Assembly: GCA_021790255.1 (NCBI GenBank)
Contig: JAJYIE010000003.1
Coordinates: 68 to 64,067, forward strand
Direction: 5' to 3'
Origin: a bacterium
GTDB lineage: Bacteria > Patescibacteriota > Microgenomatia > Daviesbacterales > UBA10151
DNA: 64,000 bases
Position 1 is the first letter of the stretch. Each line of letters begins with the position of its first letter. The position numbers and the translations under genes were made by a program. Shown here piece after piece: positions 1,776-53,981 of the stretch. Under the pieces are notes generated by a model that was not told the origin of the DNA, did not search any database, and saw only the letters and a program-made list of their open reading frames with translations.

Positions 1776-2495
1776 TTAATTCATGATGTAAATATCCACA
1801 AAGTGGCTGGTCCAATTTTTGGTCTGGTCGTTATCAAATCCCAAGTCGACCATGTTGCCATTAACGCCGCCGCCGGTATCACCCGCTAAAGCCGTGCCGT
1901 ACCCAGGGACATAAAATTTGCTGCCCAGTTTAATGACTGAGGGATCAACCGCCGCAATGCCTTTCCCGGCCTGAAGACCTAAAGAGGTCCGTCCGGTGCC
2001 GCTGCATGTTGAGCAAAAAGGCGTATAGTCGGTGGCCCAGACATGTAATTTCTCCCAATAGCTAATCTGTCCGTCAGGGGTATCAAGTGTGTGCCAGACG
2101 ATTTTAGTGCCGCGGGAGATGATTTTATTTGTGGGACTAATGGTTTTAGTGGCCGTAACTTCCCGCTGGTACTCCCGGCCTTGGTAATAAGTTATTTTAA
2201 TTGTGCGGGTTATTTTACCGAGTTCGCCATCCTGAGCGACCGTTTGTGTGCCTGCTTCAGCATTCGGATCATCCTGGTAAACAGTTTTAAAGGGGATATC
2301 TTCACTTTCCTCTGTGAATTTGCTGGTAAAACGTGACTCTGTGGTGACCGGAGGTAGTGAAGCTGCCAGAGTAACGCGAAGATGTGGAGCGGTCAGATCG
2401 GCTGAGGTGTTTTGCCGGCTGATTGTTAAAGCAACCATAACCAAAACCAGTCCGAGAATAGTTTGCACCTTAATGCTGGCAAATCCGTCTAACAT
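1776..2495 (-). CDS. G5 + 3D-domain cell-wall-binding protein (YabE/YocH-like)
   Basis: N-terminal signal/TM. C-terminal 3D-domain signature (TASG...VAVDPSVIKLGSKFYVPGYG...A.DTGGGV.GN.VDL) is preceded by a G5-like segment. Confidence 0.6.
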   Translation of the reverse strand: MLDGFASIKVQTILGLVLVMVALTISRQNTSADLTAPHLRVTLAASLPPVTTESRFTSKFTEESEDIPFKTVYQDDPNAEAGTQTVAQDGELGKITRTIKITYYQGREYQREVTATKTISPTNKIISRGTKIVWHTLDTPDGQISYWEKLHVWATDYTPFCSTCSGTGRTSLGLQAGKGIAAVDPSVIKLGSKFYVPGYGTALAGDTGGGVNGNMVDLGFDNDQTKNWTSHFVDIYIMN

Positions 2496-4372: not shown

Positions 4373-5202
4373 AAAGCAAATCCTTTAATAAACTTTTGAA
4401 ATTTTCGCTCCATATATAATTCTGTGTCGTGGTACATATAGCCGAATAATTTCAAAGAAGCTTTATGCCCGCAACTCAAAGTATAATAAGGAGTCTGGTT
4501 ATTTGAGAACCTAGTCTGTATATTACTCGCATAGAGTTCATGTAAAACGCCTGATAGTATGTTATGTATTCCTTGAGCCATATTTAAACTGGCAGTGTAA
4601 AATATTGTAGCAACTGGGCTGCGATATTTATTTGTGTTTCTAAGAAAGACGCAACCATCTCCGTCAAAATAACCCCTTAGAAAGTGACGAACTAGATTAT
4701 TCGGTATTTTGGGGAAATTTAAGGTTAACCTTTTTCTCTCTGAAATACCAAGTTTTAACAAATCATCAAAGACCACGCGATCACAAATTCTTAAACTAAA
4801 GGATATTTTGTTGTTATTTCTGTGGTTCTCATGCACTGGACCGTTATACTCTAAAGTTAATTTAATTTTTTCTATAATATCCCGATCGTCGCATGCGATA
4901 TGTAATATATGGGATCGACCACTATGGCAAATATTGCCGTCGGCTGCAATAAAACCTAAAGTATAAGCCATATTTGCTGACCATTTCTTGAAGAAGTTGG
5001 AGTTGACGGAGTACTTTTTAACTTTTTGCTGAATAGGTAGATATCTTACTCTTGACTGAATAGAAGCCGGAGTACGCCTAATATCTTTTCCCATTTGCTT
5101 GTATGTAAGCTTATGTACATTTGCTTTTAAAAAATTAATCTCTTGGGAAGTCCATGGGTGAGTGAATTGATTTGGCATATAAGTATTATAACAAAGCCGC
5201 AA
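4369..5202 (-). CDS. free-standing LAGLIDADG homing endonuclease (double-motif)
   Basis: Two LAGLIDADG-type motifs (LGFIAADGNI and LRGYFDGDGCV). AT-rich relative to neighbours. Stop overlaps the pcrA start by 4 nt. Confidence 0.8.
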   Translation of the reverse strand: MRLCYNTYMPNQFTHPWTSQEINFLKANVHKLTYKQMGKDIRRTPASIQSRVRYLPIQQKVKKYSVNSNFFKKWSANMAYTLGFIAADGNICHSGRSHILHIACDDRDIIEKIKLTLEYNGPVHENHRNNNKISFSLRICDRVVFDDLLKLGISERKRLTLNFPKIPNNLVRHFLRGYFDGDGCVFLRNTNKYRSPVATIFYTASLNMAQGIHNILSGVLHELYASNIQTRFSNNQTPYYTLSCGHKASLKLFGYMYHDTELYMERKFQKFIKGFAL

Positions 5203-11044: not shown

Positions 11045-11971
11045 CTAGTGTGGTTGGGAGGATAAATAATTAACAAGTTGTTGTAGATCTTCCTGGTCCA
11101 CTTTGCCGTCCCCGTTTATGTCTGCCTGCCTTAAAAATGTCTTTTTATTGATGTTTCTTAAAAGCACGCTAAGATCCAAAGAGTTGATTGTCCCGTCATC
11201 GTTTAGGTCATATAAAGAAGTTGCGGCGACAGACTCTGCATCAAGACTCAGGTCCTTTCCCAATGTTACCGGCGGCAAAGGTTTAGCGGGCAGTGTTAGG
11301 GAAACGGAAGAACTTTTATTGCCGTCAAATATCCGCAAAGTTGCCTGGGTTGAGGAAAGAGGAAAGGCGGAGGTAAGAGCATCGTTATAGAGAGAGTTAA
11401 GAGAGAGAGCAAAGCTGCCGGCAGTTTTGCTGATAGTAGCCATTTTTTGAGCGCCGGGTATCTCCAAAGTAATGATCGCTTCATTCACCGGCTGAGAGTT
11501 GTCATCGATGATATTGCCGACAACGGGTGGAGTGGCAGAAGGCGTAATTGGAGAGGCGGTTTTGAAAGACAGCGGTTTATCGACAGGGTAAATAATTGCT
11601 CCGGAGTGAACTTTATAATAGTAGACAGTGTTCGGCGAAAGGTTAGTCAGGGTGACAAAGTGCAGCTGGTGGTTTCCCAAAGCTGTATGGTCACGGTCAT
11701 CCTGAAAAACCAAATTCAGGGAGGAGGCCGAGGTGCCGGCCTGGATAAAGCCCGGGGTCTGCTTTTCGGTTTGCCAGTAAACTGAGGCAGCGCTCCCGGA
11801 GATATTGGCTACCTCAGCTCCGCGCGGAGTAGCAGATGTGTCAGCAGAGGAGAGAAAAGTTTGCCGCAGAGGGATCAGAAGAATACCCACAATTAAACCG
11901 GTAACGATAGTAGCCAGTCCGAGAAGTGTAGGGATTTTAGATTCCAAGCTCATTGATTGCTTCCTGGTCAA
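11045..11971 (-). CDS. membrane-anchored FN3-like / dockerin-repeat protein (possible pilus-associated accessory protein)
   Basis: N-terminal TM, FN3-like segment (NLSPNTVYYYKV), and a C-terminal type-I dockerin pair (DLNDDGTINSLDLSVL...DINGDGKVDQEDL). Lies in an operon downstream of pilO. Confidence 0.6.
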   Translation of the reverse strand: MTRKQSMSLESKIPTLLGLATIVTGLIVGILLIPLRQTFLSSADTSATPRGAEVANISGSAASVYWQTEKQTPGFIQAGTSASSLNLVFQDDRDHTALGNHQLHFVTLTNLSPNTVYYYKVHSGAIIYPVDKPLSFKTASPITPSATPPVVGNIIDDNSQPVNEAIITLEIPGAQKMATISKTAGSFALSLNSLYNDALTSAFPLSSTQATLRIFDGNKSSSVSLTLPAKPLPPVTLGKDLSLDAESVAATSLYDLNDDGTINSLDLSVLLRNINKKTFLRQADINGDGKVDQEDLQQLVNYLSSQPH

Positions 11972-12119
11972 AATTCGGGTCCAGGGGTTCGATAAGCTGA
12001 CTGACTTCCGCAGGGGGAGAGACTTTTTTAGCCTGGGAATGGATGAAATCTGCCCCTATCCAGATAATGATGGTTATCAGAGTAAATATTAAAATGTAAA
12101 CAAATTGTCTTCCACCCAT
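11937..12119 (-). CDS. small single-TM protein between pilO and the dockerin protein
   Basis: 60-aa ORF with one hydrophobic helix. Overlaps its neighbour, consistent with an operon. Confidence 0.3.
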   Translation of the reverse strand: MGGRQFVYILIFTLITIIIWIGADFIHSQAKKVSPPAEVSQLIEPLDPNFDQEAINELGI

Positions 12120-12124
12120 TATGG

Positions 12125-12859
12125 TTATTCCTTATGCGCCAAAAAATAACCCTTCCCGCTTACTGAAAGTGTCAGCGGCGGAAGCGGGGCTGCATTTTCT
12201 TTTTGGGCCTGGTTTTGTTCTTCATTTTTACTGATGGTAACACTTTCCAACTTAAGTATGCGCGGAGTTTTTTCCAGGCGGTCAATAGTGTCCAAAAGTT
12301 GTCCGAAGTCCCCTTTAACTGTGTAAGTAAAACCTATCTCATCCGTGGCAAACGGGTAGCTTACACCGGTGCTTGTCAGCAGGGTAACGGGTTGAATTTG
12401 CAGGGCTGTTCCGGAAACGGTAGCGGTGTTTTCCCCTCCTACTATCCCTGATACGCTGGCCTGTTGTGAGTTTTCAATATTGGCTATCAGGTCAACAACG
12501 TTTGCCTGAAGGGGAGTGGCCCGGTCAATTTTGGCCCGGCTGTCGTTAGTCAGATTCTCGAGATTACCCTTGGCAACCTGCAAGACTTGGATCTTTTTAT
12601 CCAGGTCCCCGGAAAGCTTGCTTTTTGTGTTTATCTCATCGCGAAGCTCTGTAATGGTAAAAAGGGTGGGGCGAAAGACAAAAAGAGTGAAAAAGATGAG
12701 AGCGAGTAAGGTAAAGATAATCGGCGCTGCTGATTTAACCCCGGGATGGGTAATAATTGGCTGAAAATATTCCCAACGCTTGGGGCGCAGACTTCTACTG
12801 GCCATCTGCCTCCTTTGGGTTCGGAACGATAGAAATAGTGAAAGAGAGTTCTTTGTCAT
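12125..12859 (-). CDS. pilO: type IV pilus assembly protein PilO-like
   Basis: Single TM, then a coiled-coil and PilO-like periplasmic domain. Sits immediately after the pilN-like gene. Confidence 0.55.
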   Translation of the reverse strand: MTKNSLSLFLSFRTQRRQMASRSLRPKRWEYFQPIITHPGVKSAAPIIFTLLALIFFTLFVFRPTLFTITELRDEINTKSKLSGDLDKKIQVLQVAKGNLENLTNDSRAKIDRATPLQANVVDLIANIENSQQASVSGIVGGENTATVSGTALQIQPVTLLTSTGVSYPFATDEIGFTYTVKGDFGQLLDTIDRLEKTPRILKLESVTISKNEEQNQAQKENAAPLPPLTLSVSGKGYFLAHKE

Positions 12860-13388
12860 AGGATAGGCTGTTTAGAGTAGTTTGCTTGAAAGAACCGCTG
12901 CCTTTAAAATGCTGCATAAAGGAGGCCAGCTCGACGGTAGTAGGAGATGTCCCTGTAACTGTCATAACGTTTTGCTGAGCAGAATCCAGCGACAAAGCAA
13001 AGCTGATGCTTGAAACTGTTATATTTTTGGGGGTAATTTGGGCCACACCCCGGACAGCCTGTGTAAATCGAGGGTTGGCTGCCTTAAGCTGTTTTACCTG
13101 GAGAAGTTGGTATTGAACCTGCCGGATTTCCTGTTCCTGCCCCTGCATAGCTTTCAGAAAATCGACTTTGTGTTGAATTTCACTGTTAAGATCAGCAATT
13201 TGGGCGTCCAGCTGATAGCGGTACACAAATGCCGCAATAACTCCCATTTCAACTGCAATTACCAGGAATCTTCCGACAGTGAGGAGCCATTTTGTAAATC
13301 GGGCCTGCAGGGTAAGGATATCTTCTCTTTTGTGTATCAGGTTAATCTTATACAGGCTGGTTAAAGGGCTTTTTAGTGAGGCAGGCAT
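12795..13388 (-). CDS. pilN: type IV pilus assembly protein PilN-like
   Basis: Conserved N-terminal INL segment, TM, coiled coil. Typical PilN size and architecture. Confidence 0.55.
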   Translation of the reverse strand: MPASLKSPLTSLYKINLIHKREDILTLQARFTKWLLTVGRFLVIAVEMGVIAAFVYRYQLDAQIADLNSEIQHKVDFLKAMQGQEQEIRQVQYQLLQVKQLKAANPRFTQAVRGVAQITPKNITVSSISFALSLDSAQQNVMTVTGTSPTTVELASFMQHFKGSGSFKQTTLNSLSYDKELSFTISIVPNPKEADGQ

Positions 13389-34320: not shown

Positions 34321-35406
34321 ATGGATTACGCGAGCCAACTTTCTGAAGCAAAAAAGGTTTTGCAAAGCGCGCAAAATATTTTAGTGGCTGTTCCTGCTGA
34401 GGCAGACTTGGATCAGCTAGCAGCCGGACTGGCCCTCTTTTTATCCCTGCAACAGGTCGACAAAAACGCTGATATGGTTAGCGCCGGAACAATCAAAGTC
34501 GGCCACACAATCCTCTTTGGAGTTGGGCAGATGCAAAATCAGCTTCCTCCTTCCAGCTCCGGCGACCTGATAATTACCTTGGCCGGCGTGGTAAGCGCTG
34601 ATGCGGAAGGAAAGCCTACGGTTCCTGCTTTGGAAAAGCTGGATTATTATCCGGAAGGCGCCGACTTAAACCTGGTTTTTAAGGTTTTACCCGGCCAAAA
34701 ATTTGAGCCGAGCGCAATTACACCTCATTATAAAAGTAGCGGTTATGACTTGATTTTCGTGGTGGGTGCGCCGGCTTTAACTGCCTTAGGCTCAATTTAT
34801 AACACCCGTACGGAAAGCTTTTCCGGAGCGCATATTGTAAATATTGATAACAAGCAAACAAACACCCAATTCGGCACCAGCAATGTGGTAGACCCCACCT
34901 CGACAACGGTTTCGGAAACGATGACAGCGGTGCTTCCGGCTCTGGATTTGCCGCTGGAGGGTGACATTGCCACTAATATCCTAACCGGGATCTTTGCCGC
35001 CACCAATAACTTAAGTGGCAACAGCAGCGCCAATACCTTCGAAGCAGTGGCCAGGGCCTTACGGGCCGGCGGCCAGAAGCCGGGAGTGTCGACTGCTTCT
35101 GCCGGTGGAACTGTGGCAAGCACACCATTTCAACCGTCTGTACCCGCACCAGCGCCTGTGGCAGAAGAACCCGAAGAAGAATTCGAAGAGCCTGAGCTGG
35201 CCCCGACTCTGGGCACGAACAGGGATAATTTTACTGTCCCTCCGGTAGTGCCAGAAGAACAAAACCAGCCTGTATTAGCTGTCCGGCAGGAGCATGTTGA
35301 AGAGGCGCCTTCTCCTGAGGAAGTTCCGGCCGGTGAGGAAGCAATTACCCCGGAGCTGGACTGGCTGATACCCAAAATTTATAAGGGTGGGTCATCCAAG
35401 GGCTGA
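34321..35406 (+). CDS. degenerate DHH-like protein with low-complexity Pro/Glu-rich C-terminus
   Basis: The N-terminal NILVAVPAEADLDQLAAGLAL parallels a DHH motif-I/II region, but the catalytic Asp/His residues are replaced. The C-terminal half is low-complexity. Confidence 0.45.
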   Translation: MDYASQLSEAKKVLQSAQNILVAVPAEADLDQLAAGLALFLSLQQVDKNADMVSAGTIKVGHTILFGVGQMQNQLPPSSSGDLIITLAGVVSADAEGKPTVPALEKLDYYPEGADLNLVFKVLPGQKFEPSAITPHYKSSGYDLIFVVGAPALTALGSIYNTRTESFSGAHIVNIDNKQTNTQFGTSNVVDPTSTTVSETMTAVLPALDLPLEGDIATNILTGIFAATNNLSGNSSANTFEAVARALRAGGQKPGVSTASAGGTVASTPFQPSVPAPAPVAEEPEEEFEEPELAPTLGTNRDNFTVPPVVPEEQNQPVLAVRQEHVEEAPSPEEVPAGEEAITPELDWLIPKIYKGGSSKG

Positions 35407-41687: not shown

Positions 41688-42596
41688 TTAGGACATGACC
41701 TTGGAAACAAACTGGATAGGTGTCTGCAAGTCTAAAGACAAGTGTAAACGAAAATTATTGTAGTAATCAATATATTCCCTTAAGTCTTTCTTGATAGTTT
41801 TTTCTTTAGGCAATACTCCATTAAAACATTCTTCCTGAATAGTTCTGTTAAATCTTTCAATATGGGCATTGTCATTAGGTTTCCTAATGCTGGAATGTCT
41901 CAGTTGAATGGAAGATCTGTAGAGTAGGTAGGTAAACCCGTCCTTAAATTCAGGCCCATGATCTGTTTGAAGCATTTTGAAGTTAAATCCTAAATACTTT
42001 TGAGCATTTTTAACTACTAAGTAACTAATGCTTTGTTTTAATTTAGTTTGATACTCAGCATATGCCAACCTTGAGGAGAAATCAATTAGGCAGTAGATGT
42101 AGTATCTTGATCCATCACCCCTCATTACATGGATGGTATCCATTTGCACTAGATCTCCTGGTGATTTAGCTTCAGGTCTAGGGTAGCAGCTCTTTAAAAA
42201 CCTAGATAGTTTTTTCTTTCTGATTAACCCTTCTTTTTTAAGTACCCTGCCAACAGTTCTGACACTGATTTTGTATCCTTCAGAGATTAAATGAGCATGA
42301 ATAACTGGAGCACATCTTTTGTATTTTCTTCTCAACTCAGTAATTCTTTCAACCAGCTGATCAGATGTCTGATGAGGGTGATGGTTTGGAGCAGAGGATT
42401 GTGTAGAGATGAAAAGTATTCTGTGGTCTTTGGGAAATTTCCTCACCCACTTTGTAATAGTTGCCCTTTGTACACCATACATCCTGGCAACTGTAGCTTT
42501 TTTCAACCCACCCTTAACTACAAGTTTGGCTGCCTCATATCTGGCTTTGGCAGCATATGGTGAAGATGTATATGCCATAACTGGTAAGTTTGCCAC
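41688..42596 (-). CDS. IS481-family DDE transposase (HTH + rve integrase core)
   Basis: N-terminal HTH (ATVARMYGVQRATITKWV), DDE core (QMDTIHV...IDFSSR...LQTDHGPEF...NAHIERFNRT). Confidence 0.8.
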   Translation of the reverse strand: MANLPVMAYTSSPYAAKARYEAAKLVVKGGLKKATVARMYGVQRATITKWVRKFPKDHRILFISTQSSAPNHHPHQTSDQLVERITELRRKYKRCAPVIHAHLISEGYKISVRTVGRVLKKEGLIRKKKLSRFLKSCYPRPEAKSPGDLVQMDTIHVMRGDGSRYYIYCLIDFSSRLAYAEYQTKLKQSISYLVVKNAQKYLGFNFKMLQTDHGPEFKDGFTYLLYRSSIQLRHSSIRKPNDNAHIERFNRTIQEECFNGVLPKEKTIKKDLREYIDYYNNFRLHLSLDLQTPIQFVSKVMS

Positions 42597-42754: not shown

Positions 42755-44860
42755 ATGCCCAGACGAAGATCAATTTATTCCATGCCCAAACTGAAGCTTC
42801 GCCAAAAAACCGTTATTACCGTAGGTACCCTGGTTTCTTTTATCCTGGCTGCCCTTTCTGCTGTAGCCTTAACTTCCGCTACCCCGGCTTTAGCTTTCTG
42901 GCGGGATTTTTTGGTAGCTAACCTGGGCTGGCCGGCTATTTTTACACCGCTGATTTTTCTGGTCAGCGGGTTGGTGCTACAAAAGATACGTTGGTCTTTT
43001 GCCCAGACTAATGTCCTGATCGGCCTGTTAACGATAGCCGTGACACTATCCAGCTTGACATCTCCTGTTTCCGGAGAGCAGGCAGGTAACCTCGGCAACT
43101 TTGTCTGGCTGGAGCTTGCTGCCCTTCTGGGTAAATTTGGAACAATGGCGCTTCTGGTGGGAGTGTTTTTAATCGGGGTGGTGGTACTCTTTGATACCTC
43201 ACCCGAGCAGGCCTTTGCTGTACTTGGCGGCCTGTGGAGTTTCTTGAGGGACAAAATTTGGCAGCCGTTATCAGCCGGTGGCCGTGCCGGTGGTCTGCAG
43301 CCGCGCAAGCTGGCTATTAAAGTTTCCGGCATGGAGGAAAGGTCAGCCAAGGCTTCTCCCAAGGCAGTGCCTGCTGAAGCTCCGATGATGGCTGACCAGC
43401 TGGTACAAAATGTGGCCGGACAAAACCAAATCTGGAAGTACCCGCCTCTTTCCCTACTTTCGGATAAAATCGGGGCAACCGCCGACCGGGGGGATGTCAA
43501 CAAAAGCGCTGACAGAATTGAAGACACCCTGGATTCATTCGGGATTCAGGCGAAGGTGGTAGAGGTCAACGGTGGCCCCGCCGTGACCCAGTATGCGCTG
43601 GAAGTGCCGCCTGGTGTCAAGATTGCCAAGATTACTAATCTACAGCATGATTTGGCGATGACCCTGGCTACTCCCACCGGCACGGTGAGGATTGAAGCGC
43701 CTATCCCCGGCAAATCCTTAGTGGGCATTGAGGTGCCTAACCATTCGCTGGAAATGGTGGGACTGAAAAATATTCTTTCATCAGAGGAGATGACTAAAAA
43801 CAAAGCCAAGCTGGCGGTAGCTCTGGGCAGGGATACTTCTTCCAAACCGGTTGTCATTGACTTGGCTAAAATGCCGCACTGTCTGGTGGCAGGAACTACC
43901 GGTTCCGGAAAATCCGTCCTTATCAATGCTTTTATCTGCAGCCTGCTTTTTCGCAATTCGCCTGAGGAACTGAAGCTAATTTTAGTTGACCCGAAAAGGG
44001 TAGAGCTGACCAATTATAACGGTATCCCCCATCTTTTAACTCCGGTTATTACCGATCCGGAAAAGATTTTGTCGGCGCTAAAATGGGCAATAGCGGAGAT
44101 GGACCGCCGCTATAAGCTGTTTCAATCGGTGGGGGTGAGGAATATCCAGGGATATAACGAGATGTCCGGTTTTCAGGCTCTGCCGAACATTGTTATCCTA
44201 GTTGACGAGTTGGCTGATCTGATGATGTTTGCCCCGGTTGAGGTGGAGGATGCTATTACCAGAATTGCCCAATTGGCCCGGGCGACCGGAATCCATATGG
44301 TTCTGGCTACTCAACGGCCGAGTGTGGATATTATCACGGGCCTGATCAAGGCCAACATCCCCTGCCGGATTGCTTTCAACGTTTCCTCGATGATTGATTC
44401 CCGGGTAATTATTGACCAACCGGGGGCTGAGAAACTGTTGGGCCGTGGAGATATGCTTTACCTGCCGCCGGATGCTTCCAAGCCGATGCGTATCCAGGGA
44501 GCCCGGGTAACTGATGAGGAAATTAACAACCTGATTAAATACTTAACCTCTCTAGGTGTAGCGCCTCAATATACGGATGAGGTAACGGAGATGCCATTGG
44601 GTAAATGGGGCGGCCGGATGAGGGTAGGGGACGGCCAGGATGATTTGTTTGAGGACGCGGTCAGGACGGTTTGCCAATACGACCGGGCTTCGGCATCCTT
44701 GCTGCAGCGGCGCCTGCGTGTTGGGTACGCTCGGGCGGCCCGGATTATTGACGAGTTGGAATCAGCCGGCATTATCGGCCCCGGTGACGGTAGTAAGTCC
44801 AGAGATGTGTTGGTGCGAAATGCTGACGAATACTTTAGCCAAAAAGATGTCTCGGAATAA
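42755..44860 (+). CDS. ftsK: DNA translocase FtsK/SpoIIIE
   Basis: N-terminal TM domain, motor domain with Walker A VAGTTGSGKSV, and a C-terminal gamma-like domain. Confidence 0.9.
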   Translation: MPRRRSIYSMPKLKLRQKTVITVGTLVSFILAALSAVALTSATPALAFWRDFLVANLGWPAIFTPLIFLVSGLVLQKIRWSFAQTNVLIGLLTIAVTLSSLTSPVSGEQAGNLGNFVWLELAALLGKFGTMALLVGVFLIGVVVLFDTSPEQAFAVLGGLWSFLRDKIWQPLSAGGRAGGLQPRKLAIKVSGMEERSAKASPKAVPAEAPMMADQLVQNVAGQNQIWKYPPLSLLSDKIGATADRGDVNKSADRIEDTLDSFGIQAKVVEVNGGPAVTQYALEVPPGVKIAKITNLQHDLAMTLATPTGTVRIEAPIPGKSLVGIEVPNHSLEMVGLKNILSSEEMTKNKAKLAVALGRDTSSKPVVIDLAKMPHCLVAGTTGSGKSVLINAFICSLLFRNSPEELKLILVDPKRVELTNYNGIPHLLTPVITDPEKILSALKWAIAEMDRRYKLFQSVGVRNIQGYNEMSGFQALPNIVILVDELADLMMFAPVEVEDAITRIAQLARATGIHMVLATQRPSVDIITGLIKANIPCRIAFNVSSMIDSRVIIDQPGAEKLLGRGDMLYLPPDASKPMRIQGARVTDEEINNLIKYLTSLGVAPQYTDEVTEMPLGKWGGRMRVGDGQDDLFEDAVRTVCQYDRASASLLQRRLRVGYARAARIIDELESAGIIGPGDGSKSRDVLVRNADEYFSQKDVSE

Positions 44861-44880: not shown

Positions 44881-45681
44881 ATGGATGATCCAGCCGCTTT
44901 AGAAAAAGGTATAACGACCGAACCTATAAAATCCTCCAAATCTTGGGATTTTTTAAAAACCTTTGGAACAAAGCTCAAAAATAGGACTGAGGCCAAACCT
45001 CACGTTTACCCTGAATCACCGGCTTTAGTTCAAGAGGCCCGGAATCAGTTAATAGATAAAATACTAACGGGAGGTTTAAAATCCAGTGAGACTGTAGTAC
45101 AAGAGGGTGGCCAGTTTTTGGGGTCAATCGACAAGGAATCGATGCCTTATATTTTTGGGCGGGACTTAAAACCGGTGGATCAATACCACGATCAGGCTAC
45201 ATTCCGACGGGCTTTGGACCAGGTTTTATATATGGGGGATTCTAGCTGTTTGCCGGTAGTTACCGAACGCCCAGGAGAATCAGCAGTCCAAAGACATTTG
45301 GTCAGATCTACCAAAGCAGAGCGAGATGAAATTTCTCGGCGAGCTTCCTCTTCTTTTTTAGTGGTTTGTAAAAGTAACTCTAACTCTGATTATGCCAGAA
45401 CAGAAGACCAGACTAAACCAGGCGACTTTGCCTACGTTGTCTTTCCGGAGCAGGTTTTAAGTGAATACGGTGCAGACAAGTTGGCTCAAAAAGGCTTGAA
45501 AATTGCATCGGTTAGTCGAGTGGTAAAACGCAGTTTGTTAATGGGTGACCCAGTTGATATACCTGACTATGAAGGAGCGCTTGAGGAGATTGTGCAAGAA
45601 CTGAACTCCCCGATTTGGGTCCACGCTGTCAGGTTACCTTTAAAAGAAGATTTAGAGAAAAGTGGGCAGATTCAAAAGTAA
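44881..45681 (+). CDS. hypothetical protein (266 aa), AT-rich
   Basis: ORF with no recognisable motif. Lower GC than flanking genes. Confidence 0.5.
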   Translation: MDDPAALEKGITTEPIKSSKSWDFLKTFGTKLKNRTEAKPHVYPESPALVQEARNQLIDKILTGGLKSSETVVQEGGQFLGSIDKESMPYIFGRDLKPVDQYHDQATFRRALDQVLYMGDSSCLPVVTERPGESAVQRHLVRSTKAERDEISRRASSSFLVVCKSNSNSDYARTEDQTKPGDFAYVVFPEQVLSEYGADKLAQKGLKIASVSRVVKRSLLMGDPVDIPDYEGALEEIVQELNSPIWVHAVRLPLKEDLEKSGQIQK

Positions 45682-45998: not shown

Positions 45999-46643
45999 TT
46001 GCTCATGCGCACTGTCGGGCAGATTTTTAAGGAAACCCGCGAAGAGAAGGTCTACAGTTTAGAAGAGGTAGAAAAAGCCACAAAGATCAGAAAAGAATTA
46101 CTGGTTGCTCTGGAGTCCGATGATTACAGCAAACTTCCTCCCGCCACCTTTGTACAGGGATTTATCAAAAATTACGCCAAGTTTTTAGGTTTGGACTGCG
46201 AAAAGATGCTGGCAGTTTTCCGGCGGGGATTTTCCGATAAAAAACACGCGCCTTATGTGATGGACGCCTTTGCTCACCCGGTGCAAAATTCCCGTTTTAA
46301 ACTTGCACCCGGCCAGGTTTTAGGCGGGATGATCGTGCTTTTAGTGCTGACTTTTTTCGGGTATTTGTGGGTGCAATACCACCAGTTCGTGGGAGCACCT
46401 GCTCTAACCATTAGTTCCCCTGCCGACCAGCTGACTGCCGATGAGCCAACCATTACCCTAAAAGGCCAGACTGATCCGGATGCTAAAATTACAGTTAACG
46501 GCCAGGATGTGGCAGTGGATGCCAGCGGGAATTTTCAAGAAGATATCACCCTGTCCGCTCCTGTTAATAAACTAACTATTACCTCAATCTCTCATTTCGG
46601 CCAACAAGCTACGCAGGAAAGGACGGTGTATTTAAAAAGATAG
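45999..46643 (+). CDS. rodZ: RodZ-like cytoskeleton protein (XRE-type HTH + TM + C-terminal domain)
   Basis: HTH (LEEVEKATKIRKELLVALESDDYSKLP), a single TM helix, and a beta-rich C-terminal domain. Confidence 0.55.
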   Translation: MLMRTVGQIFKETREEKVYSLEEVEKATKIRKELLVALESDDYSKLPPATFVQGFIKNYAKFLGLDCEKMLAVFRRGFSDKKHAPYVMDAFAHPVQNSRFKLAPGQVLGGMIVLLVLTFFGYLWVQYHQFVGAPALTISSPADQLTADEPTITLKGQTDPDAKITVNGQDVAVDASGNFQEDITLSAPVNKLTITSISHFGQQATQERTVYLKR

Positions 46644-46701: not shown

Positions 46702-46983
46702 ATGGATATATTACAATTTGCCCTGGTTTTTTTAGTATTATTGCTGGGGACAATGCTGACCATTTTAGGGGTGCAGGTATTCTTTATCCTCCGGGATTTG
46801 CGCAGATCTTTGGACAAACTGGATAACCTGCTCTCTGATGCACAAATTATTGCTGATGATGTAGAAAAGCCCCTTAAGGCTGCGGCGGATATTGGTGAGG
46901 CAATGGAAGCGGGAGCCAAGATGGCTCAGGCAATTGCCCGGGTCAGCAGCCCTGCACGCAGATTGTTTTTTAAGAAACACTAG
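46702..46983 (+). CDS. small membrane protein, DUF948-like (N-terminal TM + coiled coil)
   Basis: Architecture only. The 3' end overlaps the alaS 3' end by 14 bp (convergent). Confidence 0.4.
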   Translation: MDILQFALVFLVLLLGTMLTILGVQVFFILRDLRRSLDKLDNLLSDAQIIADDVEKPLKAAADIGEAMEAGAKMAQAIARVSSPARRLFFKKH

Positions 46984-48853
46984 GATAGGATAGGGTAGCG
47001 TAGATACGGCGCACTCCGGCGCCGGCGGATTCTTCTTTAGTAATTTGGAAATGGCCTAATTGCCCGGTGTGTTCAATATGTGGACCGCCGCAAATCTCTT
47101 TGCTGAAGTTCCCGATCGTGTAAACGCTAACCTTATCCCCGTACTTTTCGGCAAAAAAGCCCAGGGCTCCTGATTTTAAAGCCTTTTCCTTACTCGTCTC
47201 TTCCCGGGTCACAGGCAGATCCTCACTGATTTTCTGATTAACCAGATCTTCAACTTGTTTTAGTTGTTCTTCGGTTAATTTTTCCGGCTGAGAAAAATCA
47301 AAACGGATCCGTTCGGCGGTAATATTGCTACCTTTTTGCTGGACATGGGTTCCCAGAATCTGCCTGAGTGCAGTATGGAGTAAGTGAGTGGCGGTATGGT
47401 ATTTGGTAGTAATTTCCGAGTGATCCTGCAGGCCGCCCCGAAACATACCAGCAGAAGCAGTACGGGATAACTCGCGATGCTGAGTAAATGCCTTCATAAA
47501 TCCTTCCGAATCAATGTATAGGTTTTGTTCTGCAAGAAGTTCATGGGTAAGTTCGTAAGGAAAGCCGTAAGTCTGGTATAGATCAAAAGCAATTTTACCC
47601 GCATCTTCAATATTTTGTTTCATGTTGGGTAATTGTTTATTAAACTCTTTTAACCCCCTTTCCAAAGTTATTCGAAACTTATCTTCTTCTCTACTAAGTT
47701 CCGACAAAATAGTTTCTTCGGTATTTTTTACCCAAGGGTAAACATCCTGGTAAAGTTTAACTATCTGCCTGGCAATTTCTTTCGTGAGATTATTCTTAAT
47801 ATTTAGCTGATGCCCTTTTAAAACCGCACGTCGGATTAGCCGTCTTAAAGTATAACCTTGCGTTTTATTGGAAGGAGTTACGCCGCTGGCGATTAGAAAA
47901 ACGGCGCCTCTTAAATGATCAGTAATAATCCTGAAATCCGGTTGAAAGTTTTTGTCCTCATATGACTTCCCTGAAATTTTCTCTAAATGAAAGATAAGTG
48001 GAGTAAAAAGATCAATCTCAAAAATATCAGAAAGGTTTTGCGAGGCAGCCGTGATTCTTTCTAATCCTCCCCCAAAATCCACATTTTTTTTAGGTAACGG
48101 CTCGAATTTATTTTCGGCCAGCTTTTTAAACTCCATAAAAACAGAGTTGCCGATTTCTAAGAAATGGCCGCAATCACAGTTAGGATGACAATACTTCCCG
48201 TATTTGGGATCATGTTCAATTTCACTGAATTCATAAAACATCTCCGAGTCTGGCCCAAAAGGTTCACCTTCCGGGATTTCTTCGAAGCCACCAAAACGGC
48301 TCCAGAGATTTTTCTTTTCGCCGTAATAAAAAATACGTCCTCCTTGCATACCGACATCGGCAGCGTGGCTTTCGGTTCCCAACTCTACCGCACTGGCTTC
48401 AATCCCTTTTTCAAAAAAGAGTTTCTTCCATATTTCGACTGACTTATTGTCTCTGGGTAAATTGTATTTTTCATCACCGGCAAAAACGCTGACATAAATT
48501 TTTTGTGGATCAAGTCCTACAATTTCCGTTAGAAACTCCCATACCCAAGGAATCTGCTCGTCTTTGAAATAATCACCTAAAGACCAGTTGCCCAACATCT
48601 CGAAAAAAGTAGTATGTCTGTTGTCACCAACTTCTTCAATGTCCTGAGCCCTGAAACTGAGCTGCGAATCAGTTAGCCGGTTTCCTTCGGGGTGAGTTTG
48701 CCCCAATAGATAGGGAATCATTGGTTGCATCCCCGAACCGGTAAAAAGAGTCGTTGAATCGTTCTCGGGCACAAGGGGAGCTGGTGGCACATTTTTGTGC
48801 CCTCTTTCTTCAAAGAATTTTAAATATTTTTGGCGAAGCTCATCAGCGGTCAT
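46970..48853 (-). CDS. alaS: alanine--tRNA ligase lacking the C-terminal C-Ala oligomerization domain
   Basis: Catalytic core (FTGSGMQP, WSLGDY), tRNA-recognition and editing domain (HTATHLLH...CGGPH). Ends after the editing domain at 627 aa. Confidence 0.9.
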   Translation of the reverse strand: MTADELRQKYLKFFEERGHKNVPPAPLVPENDSTTLFTGSGMQPMIPYLLGQTHPEGNRLTDSQLSFRAQDIEEVGDNRHTTFFEMLGNWSLGDYFKDEQIPWVWEFLTEIVGLDPQKIYVSVFAGDEKYNLPRDNKSVEIWKKLFFEKGIEASAVELGTESHAADVGMQGGRIFYYGEKKNLWSRFGGFEEIPEGEPFGPDSEMFYEFSEIEHDPKYGKYCHPNCDCGHFLEIGNSVFMEFKKLAENKFEPLPKKNVDFGGGLERITAASQNLSDIFEIDLFTPLIFHLEKISGKSYEDKNFQPDFRIITDHLRGAVFLIASGVTPSNKTQGYTLRRLIRRAVLKGHQLNIKNNLTKEIARQIVKLYQDVYPWVKNTEETILSELSREEDKFRITLERGLKEFNKQLPNMKQNIEDAGKIAFDLYQTYGFPYELTHELLAEQNLYIDSEGFMKAFTQHRELSRTASAGMFRGGLQDHSEITTKYHTATHLLHTALRQILGTHVQQKGSNITAERIRFDFSQPEKLTEEQLKQVEDLVNQKISEDLPVTREETSKEKALKSGALGFFAEKYGDKVSVYTIGNFSKEICGGPHIEHTGQLGHFQITKEESAGAGVRRIYATLSYPSVS

Positions 48854-49042: not shown

Positions 49043-51478
49043 ATGAGTTTTCTAGATGATCTGGCTGCCCGCCTCCCTTTTAAGCTTAAACGTCGAGCCG
49101 CTGAGGCTCAATATTTTTTTGCTGTAAATATCAGCCTTTTTCAGGTCACAGCCGCAGTCTGGGAAATTTTTAACAACCGGCTGGAGATTAACGGTCAGGC
49201 AACATTACCCTCTGAGGGAACAGGTGAGCTGGTAGAAAAAACTTACCAGGCTTTAGACCGCGCAGTTGGGGCACTTGAAGTGGAACCGGAGAAAGTGCTG
49301 TTCGGAGTGCCGGACTCCTGGAGCGATAAGGAAGATCTGCGCGAACCATACCTGAAACTGCTGCGAAAAATGCTCAAAGAATATGAGCTGCAGCCTTTGG
49401 CGTATGTAACTACCACTGGAGCGATTTCTTATCTGCTACAAAAAGAAGAAGGCATTCCGCCGACGGTTATCCTGCTTGGAATCGGAGACTCTGTTGAAGC
49501 AGCGCTGCTTTCCGCTGGTAAAGTGGTGGAAAGTCATTCGGCACGGGGGGAGAACTTACTGGATAGTGTAGGAAAAGTAGTCGGACAGTTTGCTGAAATG
49601 GAGTCATTGCCATCCCGGGTTTTGCTATATTCTACCTCCTCTGATGCGGATCTAACTAAAGCACGGGATCAGCTGATGTCTTATCAATGGATACAGAAAC
49701 TGTCTTTCCTGCACTTTCCCAAGATTGAAGTTTTAGAAGAAGGAACAGCCCTGAAAGCTGTGGTTTTAGCCGGAGCGGTGGATTTGTGCCCGCAGGTTGA
49801 TCTGCGCCACAGCTTTACTGCAGGTAATTTATCCGGAACCGGTGGAGAAAGGCTCAACGGATCAGGCGCGCGCAGCTTCGGGCAAAGTTTGGCAGGAGCA
49901 AGGCCGCTTACAGATTCCGACACAAGGCAAGCAGAAGAAGCGGATGAAGTCAGCAAACACCCGGCTGGCGCCGGTTTTATTCAGGGCGATATCCGTAATT
50001 TTAAGTCTGCAAGAGCAGCAGACTCGGAAGATGATTTGCCAGCCGGAGGGAAACCCCGCTTTTCAGTTGGGACTTCTGATGAGGAGATGACAGATATGGA
50101 GCGTGAAGATTTAGATGACGACAAATTGATGGGTCCGGATAAGGAAGAAGAGATGCTAAGCGAAGAGGAAGAGGAAGGGATTTACGCGCCCCTACCGGGG
50201 CAGGTACACCAGGGTCTTATGCAACCCGCACCGGTTAGTGAAACTTCAGCTCTGCCGGCATTGTGGTTGGGCCGGTTGCAAAGGGCAGTGCAGGGGTTAT
50301 CTTTTCCTATGTTAAAAGGAGGTATGGGAGCATCGTGGAAGCTTTTGGCTCCCTTAGGCCTACTGCTGATTTTGCTGGCAGTTTATATTTTTTATCCCAA
50401 GGCTACGGTGACAGTTTTTGTCCAGCCACGGACTCTGGAGAAAAGCGCGGAGATTGTGGCAGATCCGGCAGCCACAGCGGTGGATGAGCAGAACATGATT
50501 ATCCCGGGCAAGGTGGTGGAAACTGCTGTCAAGGGATCAGGAACAATTGCCGTTACCGGCCAGAAAGAAGTTGGCGATCCAGCAAAAGGGCAGGTGGTCA
50601 TTTACAACCTGACGGAAAATCCTCAGTCTTTCTCTCAGGGGACTGCCCTGTCTTCTGATTCCGGCCTGAAATTTACCCTGGATACCTCAGTAAGTATTGC
50701 TTCCCAGTCTTCAACGATAGGCGCCGATTTTACGCAAACTATTAAACCTGGGAAGTCTGATGCAGTTGGGATGACGGCAGTTCAGATCGGACCGGAGGGC
50801 AATCTGCCGGCCGGTAGTCAGCTGACGGTCGACAGCAAATCCAAATCTGAGGTGGTAGCCCGGGTAGAGGAGGCTCTTTCCGGCGGTACCTCTAAACAAG
50901 TGACCGTTGTTACGGCAAATGATCAGGCAAAACTCAAAGCTCAGGTGCTGGACACACTGCGCCTACAGGCTGAAACGGTGCTAAAAGGGTCAGTCAATGG
51001 CGACCAGCAGGTGATCAGTGAAGCCCTGATGGTCACTGACAGCAGCTTTGATTTTAATAAGGAAGTGAACGATCAGGCCAGCCAACTAAGCGTTAACGCC
51101 ACAGCCCACTTTAAAGGCACGGCATATTCCGAAGCAAACCTGCGCTCTCTCGTGTCAAAGCTTGTCTCTACGGATATTCCGTCCGGATACTCTCTGGATT
51201 TGCAGAGTACTGAGACCCAGGCCGGTGTTTCCCGGGTGGAAAAAGACGGCAAGCTGGTATTTCAGGCACAGTTCAAAGCCGAACTGTTACCGACACTAAA
51301 CCTTGATACCCTGAAAAGCAGTATCGAGGGCAGAAGCATAGCCGATGCAAAGGCAAGTCTGAAAAATATGGATAATGTCATTGATGCGGATGTCAAGATT
51401 AACCCTCCCCTACCAGGGCCACTGCAGCGCCTGCCCCTTTTCGGCAGTCATATTAATATTGATGTTACCCCAAAGTGA
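49043..51478 (+). CDS. large membrane protein: degenerate FtsA/PilM-like actin-fold N-terminus + acidic linker + 1 TM + about 380-aa extracytoplasmic domain
   Basis: VILLGIGDSVEAALLSAGKV parallels the FtsA/PilM phosphate-2 region (VLVDIGGGTTD) but lacks the catalytic Asp/Gly-rich residues. TM helix is LLAPLGLLLILLAVYIF. Confidence 0.55.
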   Translation: MSFLDDLAARLPFKLKRRAAEAQYFFAVNISLFQVTAAVWEIFNNRLEINGQATLPSEGTGELVEKTYQALDRAVGALEVEPEKVLFGVPDSWSDKEDLREPYLKLLRKMLKEYELQPLAYVTTTGAISYLLQKEEGIPPTVILLGIGDSVEAALLSAGKVVESHSARGENLLDSVGKVVGQFAEMESLPSRVLLYSTSSDADLTKARDQLMSYQWIQKLSFLHFPKIEVLEEGTALKAVVLAGAVDLCPQVDLRHSFTAGNLSGTGGERLNGSGARSFGQSLAGARPLTDSDTRQAEEADEVSKHPAGAGFIQGDIRNFKSARAADSEDDLPAGGKPRFSVGTSDEEMTDMEREDLDDDKLMGPDKEEEMLSEEEEEGIYAPLPGQVHQGLMQPAPVSETSALPALWLGRLQRAVQGLSFPMLKGGMGASWKLLAPLGLLLILLAVYIFYPKATVTVFVQPRTLEKSAEIVADPAATAVDEQNMIIPGKVVETAVKGSGTIAVTGQKEVGDPAKGQVVIYNLTENPQSFSQGTALSSDSGLKFTLDTSVSIASQSSTIGADFTQTIKPGKSDAVGMTAVQIGPEGNLPAGSQLTVDSKSKSEVVARVEEALSGGTSKQVTVVTANDQAKLKAQVLDTLRLQAETVLKGSVNGDQQVISEALMVTDSSFDFNKEVNDQASQLSVNATAHFKGTAYSEANLRSLVSKLVSTDIPSGYSLDLQSTETQAGVSRVEKDGKLVFQAQFKAELLPTLNLDTLKSSIEGRSIADAKASLKNMDNVIDADVKINPPLPGPLQRLPLFGSHINIDVTPK

Positions 51479-51541
51479 TACTTTCTTTGGACTGGCACCT
51501 TTTCCGATAAACAGTTAGAATCTCATTTAGACTAAGATTAT

Positions 51542-51928
51542 ATGAAATATTTAGGGGTTGACTGGGGATTAAAAATGATCGGCTTGGCAGTATCAGAGGG
51601 GGAACTGGCGGCTCCATGGCAAAGTATTAAAGTTCACAGCTTTAAGCAGGCCATTGCGGTAATCTCTGCTTTGGCCCGGGAGGGTTCTTTCGAGAAAATT
51701 GTGATCGGTCAACCTGAAAGAGAAATGGGCAAAATAGCGCAGAAAGCAGGTGGGGTTTTACAAAAGAGGGGTTTTCCCGTTATTATGGCTGATGAAACCA
51801 TGAGCACCAAAGATGCCCGTGAGCAAATGATCAAACTTGGTATGGGGAGAAAGCGGCGCCGGGATGACAATGCGGTGGCGGCAGCCATAATTTTGCAGCG
51901 TTTCTTGGAAGAGAGTAATCAGAAATGA
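51542..51928 (+). CDS. ruvX: Holliday-junction resolvase-like RuvX/YqgF
   Basis: YLGVDWGLKMIGLAVSE matches the YqgF N-terminus. The alaS...ruvX-mltG neighbourhood is conserved. Confidence 0.85.
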   Translation: MKYLGVDWGLKMIGLAVSEGELAAPWQSIKVHSFKQAIAVISALAREGSFEKIVIGQPEREMGKIAQKAGGVLQKRGFPVIMADETMSTKDAREQMIKLGMGRKRRRDDNAVAAAIILQRFLEESNQK

Positions 51929-52902
51929 GAAAATCACACTTTTTATATACGCTGGTGGTAGTTGCTATCGCCGGGGTGCTGGTTTTCTGGGCAGCTAAAT
52001 CTTACTGGGATTACCTTTTGTCTCCGGCTGATTCCCAAGATAGCCAGGTGCAGGTTTTTATCATCAGCAAAGGTGATGCTTCAGCCGATATTGCTGACCG
52101 CCTGCAGCAAAAAGGGCTGATCAGATCAGCTTTGGCTTTCCGGCTGTTCGCCCGCTTTTCCGGCCGGGCTGCCCAAATCCAGGCCGGCTCTTTTCGCTTG
52201 TCGCCCTCAATGAGTGCTGACCAAATGCTGCGGGAGTTGGCAGTGGGAGCTGAGGATAAATGGGTGACCCTTTTGGAAGGGTGGAGGGTGGAGGAGATGG
52301 CTGCCCAGCTGAGTAAGGATCTGGGTATAGATAAAAAAGAATTTTTAACCCGGGTCCGGGAGGGTTATGTTTTTCCCGATACTTACCTCTTTAGCAAGGA
52401 TGGCGGTGTGGCGGAGGTAATTAAAGCCACCCAGGATAATTTTAATAAAAAATATGATAAGGCGCTGCAGCAGATGGTGGAAGCAAAAGGGTTAACAACC
52501 GACCAGGGGGTAATTCTGGCATCAATTGTGGAAAGAGAGGCCCGCACCCCGCAGGCCCGGCAGATGGTAGCGAGTATTTTGTTAAAAAGGCTTAGGATTG
52601 GTATGGCTTTGAACACCGATGCTACCATCCAGTATGCTCTCGGCTATCAGCATGATGAGAAAAGTTGGTGGAAGAAAAACCTGACGGATGCGGATAAACA
52701 GGTAGATTCGCTTTACAATACCTATACCCATGCCGGTTTGCCGCCCGGGCCGATTTGTAATCCCGGGTTATCTTCACTGGAAGCTGTAGCCAACGCTGAC
52801 CCGTCAACGCCCTTTCTTTACTATTATCATGACTCAAACGGCGTTCCTCATTATGCCCGCACCCTGGATGAGCAAAATCAAAATGTGGCCAATTATCCGT
52901 AG
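51925..52902 (+). CDS. mltG: endolytic murein transglycosylase MltG (YceG family)
   Basis: N-terminal TM and a YceG domain (GSFRLSPSMSADQML...GLPPGPICNPG). Confidence 0.85.
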   Translation: MRKSHFLYTLVVVAIAGVLVFWAAKSYWDYLLSPADSQDSQVQVFIISKGDASADIADRLQQKGLIRSALAFRLFARFSGRAAQIQAGSFRLSPSMSADQMLRELAVGAEDKWVTLLEGWRVEEMAAQLSKDLGIDKKEFLTRVREGYVFPDTYLFSKDGGVAEVIKATQDNFNKKYDKALQQMVEAKGLTTDQGVILASIVEREARTPQARQMVASILLKRLRIGMALNTDATIQYALGYQHDEKSWWKKNLTDADKQVDSLYNTYTHAGLPPGPICNPGLSSLEAVANADPSTPFLYYYHDSNGVPHYARTLDEQNQNVANYP

Positions 52903-52904
52903 AT

Positions 52905-53981
52905 ATGGAACTATCACCTTTCAAACTAGAACGCTATTTTGCTAGGTATGAGTTCTCTGCTAAATATTTACTGCCGCCTCCGATTGCGACGGTTTGTGCC
53001 AGCAAGATCTTATCGTCCTATCGGACCCCGAAATCAAGCACCTTTGGGATAATTTGTTTAGGCTATACCGAGTCACGCGGTTTACCACTACTGCGCGAGG
53101 AAATAAGCAAGATTTATCGGGAACTTCAGCGGATGATGTTCTGGTTATTGCTCCGGAAGAGGGAATCTTTATCGCCATGAATACAATTTTAGAACGCGGA
53201 GACCATTTAATTTGCACTTTCCCAGGTTGCCAATCCCTTTATATGAAATAGCTCAGGGGCTCGGATGTGAAGTAACGAAGTGGCAGCCGGAAGAGGAAGA
53301 GAGATGGTGGTTTAACCCGGAGTTTTTAGAAAGCAGCATTCAATCAAACACTAAATTAGTGATGGTTAATTTTCCTCATAACCCAACCAGATATTTCCCT
53401 TCCAGACAGGATTTTGACCGGATAATTGAGATTGCCCGAGCCCATAATTTATATCTTTTTTCGGATGAGATGTATTATTTGTTGGAGTACGACTCTTCCG
53501 ACAGATTACCTGCGACAGTTGAAGTTTATGATCAGGCTGTGTCGCTTTTTGGTATGCCCAAAACTTTCGGTATGGCTGGGATTCGTCTGGGATGGGTAGT
53601 AACAAAAAACAGGCAGATGTTGGGAAAGTGCTGATCTTTAAGGGCTACACCACAATTTGTAGCAGCGCTCCTTCGGAGATTTTAGCCCTGGTTGCCTTAA
53701 GAGCCAAAGACCGAATTGTTGCTTAGCATCTTAATTTGATTAAAAGTAATTTAGAGTTGACTGAGCAGTTCTTTGCGAGTCATCAAGATCTGCTTAGCTT
53801 CATATATCCGAAAGCAGGAACGATCTCTTTCCATAAACTATTTTCCAGCCATCGTGCATTGAACTTTTGTGAGAATCTGGTGAGCGAGACTGGGATAATG
53901 TTACTGCCGTCAACGGTTTATGATTTTGACGATAAACATTTTTGTTTAGGTTTTGCCGGAAGAATTTCCCCGAAGCCCTAG
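52905..53981 (+). pseudogene. class I/II PLP-dependent aminotransferase pseudogene (at least 5 frameshifts + 1 in-frame stop)
   Basis: The protein can be reconstructed only by hopping frames: LSPFKLERYFARYEFSAKYLL / DLIVLSDPEIKHLWDNL / LGYTESRGLPLLREEISKIY / SADDVLVIAPEEGIFIAMNTILERGDHLICTFPGCQSLY / EIAQGLGCEVTKW...GMAGIRLGWVV / LIFKGYTTICSSAPSEILAL...* / LNLIKSNLE...LGFAGRI. Confidence 0.75.

Follow-up and report, generated by a model that had tools for sequence, protein, structure and literature searches.

GspL has an actin-like cytoplasmic domain that is free of nucleotide, a single transmembrane (TM) helix and a periplasmic domain. The same plan – a cytoplasmic actin-like domain needing no ATP hydrolysis, one TM helix and an outer domain, which is ferredoxin-like in PilN and GspL – describes GspL/EpsL and the PilM-PilN pair. 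FtsA, with about 420 residues, also has an actin fold and is attached to the membrane, in its case by a C-terminal amphipathic helix, and TsaB (YeaZ) is a small (~230-260 residues) actin-fold partner protein that lost nucleotide binding. Here, we describe a gene in a 64,000-nucleotide stretch of DNA (hereafter the window; positions 68 to 64,067 of contig JAJYIE010000003.1, assembly GCA_021790255.1) from a bacterium of the Daviesbacterales, class Microgenomatia, that encodes an 811-residue membrane protein of an architecture that resembles, and is distinct from, all of these. By its gene content and homologues, the window, part of a metagenome-assembled genome, falls within the Candidatus Daviesbacteria/Microgenomates part of the Candidate Phyla Radiation (CPR). 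We favour, at a probability of about 0.4, the interpretation that the protein acts together with sortase and cell-wall enzymes as a scaffold spanning the envelope, its actin fold being a pseudo-ATPase.

The gene is an ATG-started open reading frame (ORF) of the window's ORF list (see the table for coordinates), and both its extent and its length are exactly as a first-pass annotation, made from the sequence alone, had given them. All of the strings quoted there are present: VLFGVPDSW at residues 85-93, VILLGIGDSVEAALLSAGKV at residues 142-161 and EEEMLSEEEEEG at residues 368-379. From N- to C-terminus the protein is laid out as a cytoplasmic domain, an acidic linker, a single TM helix and a large ectodomain, and the globular cytoplasmic fold is preceded by a conserved peptide, MSFLDDLAARLPF, which starts MSFLDK in the window protein, follows the family consensus M-x-[FLI]-[LF]-D-K-[LIF]...LPF, and is predicted by AlphaFold2 (AF2) as a low-confidence short helix outside that fold. 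A scan for promoters and terminators around the gene gave nothing above shuffled expectation.

The protein belongs to a large family. An initial homologue search gave 142 matches, all from Microgenomates-type metagenome-assembled genomes and all full-length, at 34-50% identity. A family profile was built from 36 members; against 1.84 billion representatives of 50% identity clusters it retrieved 9241 proteins at E≤1e-3, a number that falls to 5979 at E≤1e-10 and to 2140 at E≤1e-30. Almost all of the top 150 are 700-820 residues long and align end to end. Hops from L077 (28% identical) and from P0367, the most divergent member in hand, reach members of the same architecture in Levybacteria and in unclassified Patescibacteria; one homologue is labelled Saccharimonadales, and cluster look-ups gave almost no taxon names. 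More than 360 full-length homologues retain the MSFLDK-type N-terminus, both domains and the TM helix. All conservation counts below are based on an alignment of 363 full-length sequences of the family, in which mean pairwise identity is 0.36 for the N-terminal domain, 0.36 for the ectodomain and 0.22 for the linker; since the two domains are equally conserved, both are under selection. Judged from these searches, the family is a class-wide core gene of Microgenomatia, a class of the CPR, and is not confined to a few strains.

No description of the family turned up in literature searches, in agreement with the first-pass annotation, which had not recognised it. A recent paper on the CPR 'Pam' pilus concerns other proteins. 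The NCBI pipeline names some members 'baseplate J/gp47 family protein', database entries are otherwise labelled 'hypothetical', and the actin-fold half is left unannotated. Méheust et al. reported 35 mostly hypothetical families enriched in Microgenomates, 14 of them membrane proteins (PMC6744442), and the present family is plausibly among the 35.

The AF2 model of the cytoplasmic domain (residues 1-258), built on a 73-sequence alignment, has a mean predicted local distance difference test score (pLDDT) of 89.5 and a predicted TM-score (pTM) of 0.86, and contains two lobes (residues 22-136 and 142-250), each of the order beta-beta-beta-alpha-beta-alpha-beta-alpha. In this model the domain is a minimal two-lobe actin fold of the ASKHA (acetate and sugar kinases/Hsc70/actin) type. 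Foldseek gave 569 matches in the PDB at E≤1e-3, and all of the top 50 are ASKHA proteins. The top match is Pseudomonas aeruginosa PilM (5eox, E 2.3e-10), and the best query coverage is with Staphylococcus aureus FtsA, at a query-normalised TM-score (TMq) of 0.63; ROK kinases, Ppx/GppA, BT_3980 and CoA-dehydratase activators come next, no more than one order of magnitude behind. The first-pass annotation had proposed an FtsA/PilM-like actin fold for the N-terminal ~260 residues, and at the level of fold the structure prediction bears this out. The lobes carry no insert, both the 1C/SHS2 and the 2B subdomains, by which FtsA and PilM are defined, being absent from the model, and the Foldseek alignments to FtsA and PilM hold about 100 extra target columns.

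The resemblance to FtsA and PilM does not extend to sequence. Hidden Markov models (HMMs) for FtsA, SHS2, PilM and T2SSL/GspL gave no Pfam or NCBIfam match to the window protein at E≤10 and no Pfam match at E≤0.01 among the 36 family members; searching the PDB by sequence and by profile gave no more than a chance match at E=0.69; and hhalign comparison of the domain profile with Escherichia coli FtsA (0.1%), HofM, GspL and the DnaK encoded in the window gave probabilities below 1% throughout. The same holds for the outer half, for which POTRA, FtsQ, PilN, PilO and T2SSM models match neither the window protein nor any of the 36 members, hhalign probabilities against E. coli FtsQ, HofN, HofO, GspM and the PilN/PilO-like proteins of the window are at most 0.3%, and no POTRA-, FtsQ-, PilN- or PilO-type structure is among the Foldseek top 50. 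The proposal that the protein is a one-chain FtsA-FtsQ or PilM-PilN analogue thus stands for its actin fold and its topology; it does not stand for membership of the FtsA or PilM families, nor for the ectodomain, which contains a barrel of another kind.

The structural ranking bears on two alternatives. One is an assembly platform of type IV pilus or type II secretion type, in which the protein, GspL-like or like a fused PilM-PilN, would couple a cytoplasmic ATPase to the base of a filament. The top Foldseek match to PilM and the logic of GspL, which is the same, both fit, as does the occurrence in the window of a pilN-like gene with a KINLI motif and a pilO/gspM-like gene with no adjoining pilM; moreover, the ectodomain has a long helix followed by beta-beta-alpha-beta-beta, an order reminiscent of PilN/PilO cores, to which a distant fold resemblance is conceivable. 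However, the protein lacks the SHS2-type domain at which PilN peptides and GspE bind PilM and GspL, has no sequence-profile similarity to PilM, PilN, PilO, T2SSL/M or their relatives, and adjoins pilus genes in none of 84 related loci, with the pilN/pilO-like pair of the window lying 36 kb away. Furthermore, one complete Microgenomates genome is reported to have its own pilM within a pilus locus (PMC7143001). We regard this alternative as quite unlikely. With GspL and PilM-PilN the protein shares the likely role of a trans-membrane coupler. It is unlike them in having no SHS2/1C-like subdomain, in having its fold and its TM helix joined by a long, disordered and acidic linker, in bearing a Baseplate_J-type barrel protein where PilN and GspL have a ferredoxin-like domain, and in never being encoded with pilus or secretion genes in the 84 loci.

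The pilN-like gene (12795-13388) and the PilO/GspM-like gene (12125-12859) belong to a small cluster at 11045-13388 on the minus strand that also encodes a 60-residue TM ORF and a 308-residue secreted protein with FN3-like and dockerin/EF-hand domains. The KINLI motif is N-terminal and resembles the PilM-binding INLLP motif; no pilM lies beside the cluster, and rpsT is upstream of it.

The other alternative is a divisome protein that replaces FtsA and FtsQ/DivIB by a single chain, tethering the division machinery to the wall from the cytoplasmic side. FtsA of S. aureus and of Vibrio ranks with the best matches in the PDB (TMq reaching 0.63), the genomic block holds ftsK, a rodZ-like gene and mltG, the bitopic topology is FtsQ-like, and the family is a conserved core gene; like FtsA, the protein has an actin fold, membrane attachment and a neighbourhood of ftsK and wall genes. 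But its actin domain, at 258 residues, lacks 1C and 2B – the subdomains by which FtsA makes polymer contacts and binds FtsN and FtsZ – and has lost its nucleotide motifs, and unlike FtsA it is anchored by a true TM helix bearing an ectodomain. No FtsA, SHS2 or POTRA model matches any of the 36 members, hhalign against E. coli FtsA and FtsQ stays below 1%, and the gene is never beside ftsZ or other division and cell wall (dcw) genes in the 84 loci. CPR bacteria in general, as opposed to this lineage in particular, are reported to express ftsA (PMC9938205). A tblastn search for FtsA and FtsZ over 1.56 Mb of related loci found neither, but these loci are all of the same region and are silent on whole genomes. 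A divisome role seems to us rather unlikely.

The nucleotide-binding motifs of the actin fold are degenerate, as the first-pass annotation had stated, noting another sequence in place of the phosphate-2 motif. Among the 363 members the phosphate-1 position is occupied by N (118 members), E (89), L, V or I, not DxG; the phosphate-2 hairpin reads L-G-hydrophobic-G/E-x instead of DxGGGT; and the adenosine motif reads A-G-A-S instead of GGGA, these columns having been placed by predicted secondary-structure strands and not by residue-level superposition. The degenerate motifs are also variable within the family. Because all three motifs are lost, the domain is most likely a pseudo-ATPase. Invariant instead are G159, P190, F222, H224 and P226 (362-363 of 363 members), together with W216, G88, W93 and W40, which points to a conserved site in the domain; three of these residues lie in a loop, FLHFPK, in which F222 is found in 362 members and H224 and P226 in all 363.

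This pattern is an argument for an active enzyme, in which the actin fold binds a nucleotide or phosphorylated ligand through non-canonical residues – in a kinase-, phosphatase- or chaperone-like manner – and signals across the membrane. The invariance of H224, P226, P190, G159, W216 and F222 would suit such a role, as would the structural matches to ROK kinases and Ppx/GppA, which come close to those to PilM and FtsA. However, no active ASKHA enzyme can do without the acidic and glycine-rich residues of phosphate-1 and phosphate-2, which are absent here and not conserved even within the family, and we consider an enzyme very unlikely. By analogy with the nucleotide-free actin-like domain of GspL, or with degenerate ASKHA partners such as TsaB, the domain would instead bind a partner. 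TsaB itself gave no sequence match and no match among the top 50 structures, and it is soluble, with neither a TM helix nor an ectodomain.

Between the actin fold and the membrane lies the acidic linker claimed in the first-pass annotation, which is flexible and of low complexity, contains 19% D+E, varies from 28 to 199 residues across the family and is unalignable apart from one motif. The consensus of this motif is [LF]-G-F-[VI]-x-x-D-[IV], with the G kept in 341, the F in 354 and the D in 323 of 363 members, and it is a candidate docking peptide for a cytoplasmic partner; the N-terminal peptide and this GF motif both look like docking peptides. The single TM helix that was likewise claimed is the sole TM-grade segment of the protein. 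Its core is LLAPLGLLLILLAVYIFY (residues 434-451), and 19-residue Kyte-Doolittle windows exceed 1.6 only at residues 427-460.

The ectodomain is rich in beta structure, as had been supposed, and is 356 residues long rather than the ~380 first given. Its AF2 model is locally confident (pLDDT 89.7) and globally less so (pTM 0.62), and the predicted order is long beta-hairpins, a beta-barrel, a 26-residue helix (residues 625-650), a beta-beta-alpha-beta-beta unit and alpha-alpha-beta modules. The barrel is the part with recognisable homologues. PF04865 (Baseplate_J) matches the window protein at E 9e-4 and 19.0 bits, below the 21.1 cut-off, and matches 18 of the 36 members at E≤0.01 (best 2.6e-6), with Levybacteria-clade members above the cut-off at 24-32 bits. 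The same ~100 residues are matched in Levybacteria-clade members by PF21110, 'GlxA beta barrel domain'. In PHROG, phrog_6 'baseplate wedge subunit' gives E 2.9e-5 and matches 23 of the 36 members (best 4e-8), and of the hhalign comparisons only that with Mu gp47 (P 0.01; C-domain residues 68-160, corresponding to residues 523-615) rose above noise. Within the ectodomain, homology to known families at the level of sequence is confined to the barrel; for the remainder the resemblances are suggestive.

Structure comparison points in the same direction. Foldseek matches of the ectodomain to wedge proteins in the PDB include Mu gp47 and those of phi812, A-1(L), XM1 and diffocin, and BFVD gave 31 matches at E≤1e-3, almost all of them baseplate J or wedge proteins. 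The alignments span the full length of these ~350-residue proteins with probabilities of 0.96-1.0, at a global TM-score of only ~0.2. The ectodomain can be compared with the Baseplate_J wedge proteins (Mu gp47, P2 gpJ, T4 gp6 and TssF of type VI secretion), with which it shares a homologous barrel with a G..GN ... GG region and a similar overall length. Unlike them it is cellular, membrane-anchored, extracytoplasmic and fused to an actin fold, and is encoded by a core chromosomal gene within a housekeeping block.

These matches raise the possibility of a domesticated baseplate module, in which the J-like ectodomains form a wedge-type ring that docks fibre-like adhesins for episymbiotic host contact, and the actin fold anchors or positions the ring. 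The Baseplate_J and phrog_6 matches, the full-length Foldseek alignments and the agreement in length (356 residues against 360 in Mu gp47) all speak for it, and CPR pilus operons are reported to neighbour a tail-fibre-like protein (bioRxiv 10.64898/2026.03.03.709456). Against it are the low TM-scores, the restriction of sequence homology to a barrel that also occurs in non-phage GlxA, the lack of gp25/gp46-, gp48/I- or fibre-like genes nearby, where the context is housekeeping, and the lack of relatives among IMG/VR viral contigs or 50,697 phage genomes searched by tblastn. That last result also ruled out a recent prophage origin. We judge a baseplate-like ring to be quite improbable.

The best PDB E-value for the ectodomain (4e-6) is to GlxA, a membrane-anchored radical copper oxidase of Streptomyces lividans that is needed for glycan deposition at hyphal tips. 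The barrel is not exclusive to phages, because GlxA, an extracytoplasmic wall-glycan enzyme, also has it. Both proteins are N-terminally anchored and extracytoplasmic in a monoderm envelope; the present protein differs in lacking the kelch propeller and copper site, and GlxA has no cytoplasmic domain.

Comparison of the window neighbours by tblastn with 80 Daviesbacteria loci shows a conserved block of ftsK, a rodZ-like gene, alaS, the gene described here, ruvX, mltG, rpoB and rpoC. Both ruvX and mltG are directly downstream in the window, as the first-pass annotation had it; in the window (51478-51542) and its closest relatives only 64 nt lie between the gene and ruvX. The short alaS is inverted in the window subclade and lies on the same strand as the gene in most relatives. 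In more distant members the gene and ruvX have a sortase gene between them, which is no more than a few nucleotides away or overlaps by as few; it is directly downstream in 62-63 of the 84 related loci, including the distant L077, L081, L083 and L089. These sortases are membrane-anchored and pass the generic sortase model only. In the Levybacteria clade ruvX is outside the block and alaS, the gene, the sortase gene and, further on, mltG are kept, so that the order alaS-gene-(sortase)-ruvX-mltG is retained across Microgenomatia (Daviesbacteria and Levybacteria, the latter without ruvX). PADLOC defence models matched neither three family members nor the partner sortase. Sortase is reported to be near-ubiquitous in Microgenomates (Méheust et al., PMC6744442).

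Because the gene is usually directly upstream of a sortase gene, its role is probably in surface or wall assembly rather than that of FtsA, PilM or FtsQ. In the model that we propose, the protein would be positioned in the membrane by its actin-fold domain and linker peptide, through binding to cytoplasmic partners or co-assembly with them, a cytoplasmic positional cue being received by partner binding or by self-assembly. At the site so marked, the ectodomain would organise sortase-dependent anchoring of surface proteins, peptidoglycan remodelling, or both. Overall, a cytoplasmic cue would be coupled to extracellular wall or surface assembly without ATP hydrolysis by the protein itself. The protein is not itself a candidate sortase substrate: its C-terminus, ...RLPLFGSHINIDVTPK, has no LPXTG-type sorting signal, and its only TM helix is the internal one. 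Docking of the sortase tail on the actin fold, in the manner of PilN and PilM, was also considered and rejected, the tails being 2-10 residues long and not conserved.

Several observations weigh against this scaffold model. The link to sortase or MltG is drawn from gene adjacency, which in streamlined CPR genomes can be non-functional, and the alaS-ruvX-mltG block shares no known function. No sortase gene adjoins the gene in the window subclade, nor is there one anywhere in the 64 kb, and the protein can therefore exist without a sortase in cis. The cytoplasmic tails of the Daviesbacteria sortases are so short that contact would have to be made in the membrane or outside. As read from sequence, the homology of the ectodomain is limited to ~100 residues. 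Finally, a catalytic or ligand site that has escaped recognition could lie at the invariant H224, P226, P190 and G159, and such a site would be incompatible with a pure scaffold.

A further alternative, which we think unlikely, is an unrecognised trans-envelope organiser specific to Microgenomatia. Here a nucleotide-free actin fold, assembled or docked on the cytoplasmic face, would be joined to an oligomeric platform of wedge-derived ectodomains – a domesticated baseplate part – to which either the positioning of sortase and wall enzymes or the anchoring of surface fibres would fall, possibly with linker roles of the FtsA/FtsQ type taken over in these reduced genomes. The architecture of the family is undescribed, and the bitopic actin-fold coupler is a kind of protein that is already known; there is a smaller chance that the family represents a truly new envelope machine.

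Table. Features of the gene and its neighbourhood. Positions refer to the window, except in the last row, where they refer to the related loci named.
Feature	Position	Strand	Evidence
Whole gene; bitopic membrane protein, N-in/C-out, 811 residues	49043..51478	+	ORF list; full-length homologues of the same architecture
Conserved N-terminal peptide MSFLDDLAARLPF	49043..49081	+	Column counts in 363 members; pLDDT 53-57 for residues 1-20
Predicted minimal actin/ASKHA-fold domain, residues 22-258	49106..49816	+	AF2; Foldseek against PDB; motif columns
FLHFPK loop, residues 222-227, with invariant F222, H224, P226	49706..49723	+	Column counts in 363 members
Variable acidic low-complexity cytoplasmic linker, residues 259-430	49817..50332	+	Alignment; composition
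Linker motif AGFIQGDI, residues 310-317	49970..49993	+	Columns of 363 members
Acidic run EEEMLSEEEEEG in linker	50144-50179	+	Sequence
Single TM helix, residues 434-455	50342..50407	+	Kyte-Doolittle; position conserved in alignment
Ectodomain, residues 456-811 (356 residues)	50408..51475	+	AF2; Foldseek against PDB and BFVD
Baseplate_J/GlxA-type beta-barrel, residues 510-616	50570..50890	+	Pfam, PHROG, hhalign
ruvX (Holliday-junction resolvase-like, YqgF), downstream	51542..51928	+	PF03652; 69/80 loci
mltG/YceG-like lytic transglycosylase, downstream	51925..52902	+	PF02618; 67/80 loci, also Levybacteria clade
alaS (short, 627 residues), upstream	46970..48853	-	Pfam; 76/80 loci
RodZ-like protein (HTH_25, TM, Glucodextran_B domain)	45999..46643	+	Pfam; 63/80 loci
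ftsK (alpha, motor and gamma domains)	42755..44860	+	Pfam; 56/80 loci
Sortase genes in relatives	L077 12268-12963; L081 12431-13249; L083 12328-13020; L089 12375-13094		

Other features of the conserved block and its surroundings were also recorded. A zinc-ribbon-like ORF (~63-66 residues, CxxC...CxC) recurs between ruvX and mltG in the distant relatives L081 (13662-13853), L083 (13407-13607) and L077 (14615-14803); the window, whose ruvX and mltG overlap, shows no such ORF. The ORF at 46702-46983 (+), between the rodZ-like gene and alaS, encodes a 93-residue TM protein; its position is kept in relatives, where it is followed by a YtxH gene. Like this ORF, a 266-residue ORF after ftsK (44881-45681, +) and a 361-residue ORF (34321-35406, +) have no family match. 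An insertion sequence (IS)-type transposase gene with a helix-turn-helix (HTH) and an rve integrase core (41688-42596, -) separates RNase J from ftsK, and looks like a recent insertion because these two genes adjoin in related loci. A class I/II aminotransferase-like gene at 52905-53981 (+) is broken up into four or more ORFs that lie in different frames (52905-53180, 52994-53251, 53212-53634 and 53736-53981), and is probably a frameshifted pseudogene or contains assembly errors. Elsewhere, a LAGLIDADG_3 homing-endonuclease-like ORF (4369-5202, -) is immediately upstream of a UvrD-type helicase gene (2495-4372, -), its 3' end and the helicase start sharing 4 nt. In the 64 kb window no tRNA gene was found, nor any Rfam family at the gathering threshold.

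Next to nothing is known about the cell biology of Microgenomatia, a very large class that is uncultivated, and the family described here is one of its conserved membrane proteins. Recognising its architecture corrects a tempting FtsA/PilM/FtsQ label, and also shows that the name 'baseplate J/gp47', which derives from ~100 residues, hides the actin-fold half. The family adds a new architecture to the bacterial actin-fold proteins, may exemplify the recruitment of a structural module of phages to the cell envelope, and offers a starting point for learning how monoderm, ultra-small cells organise the assembly of their wall and surface.

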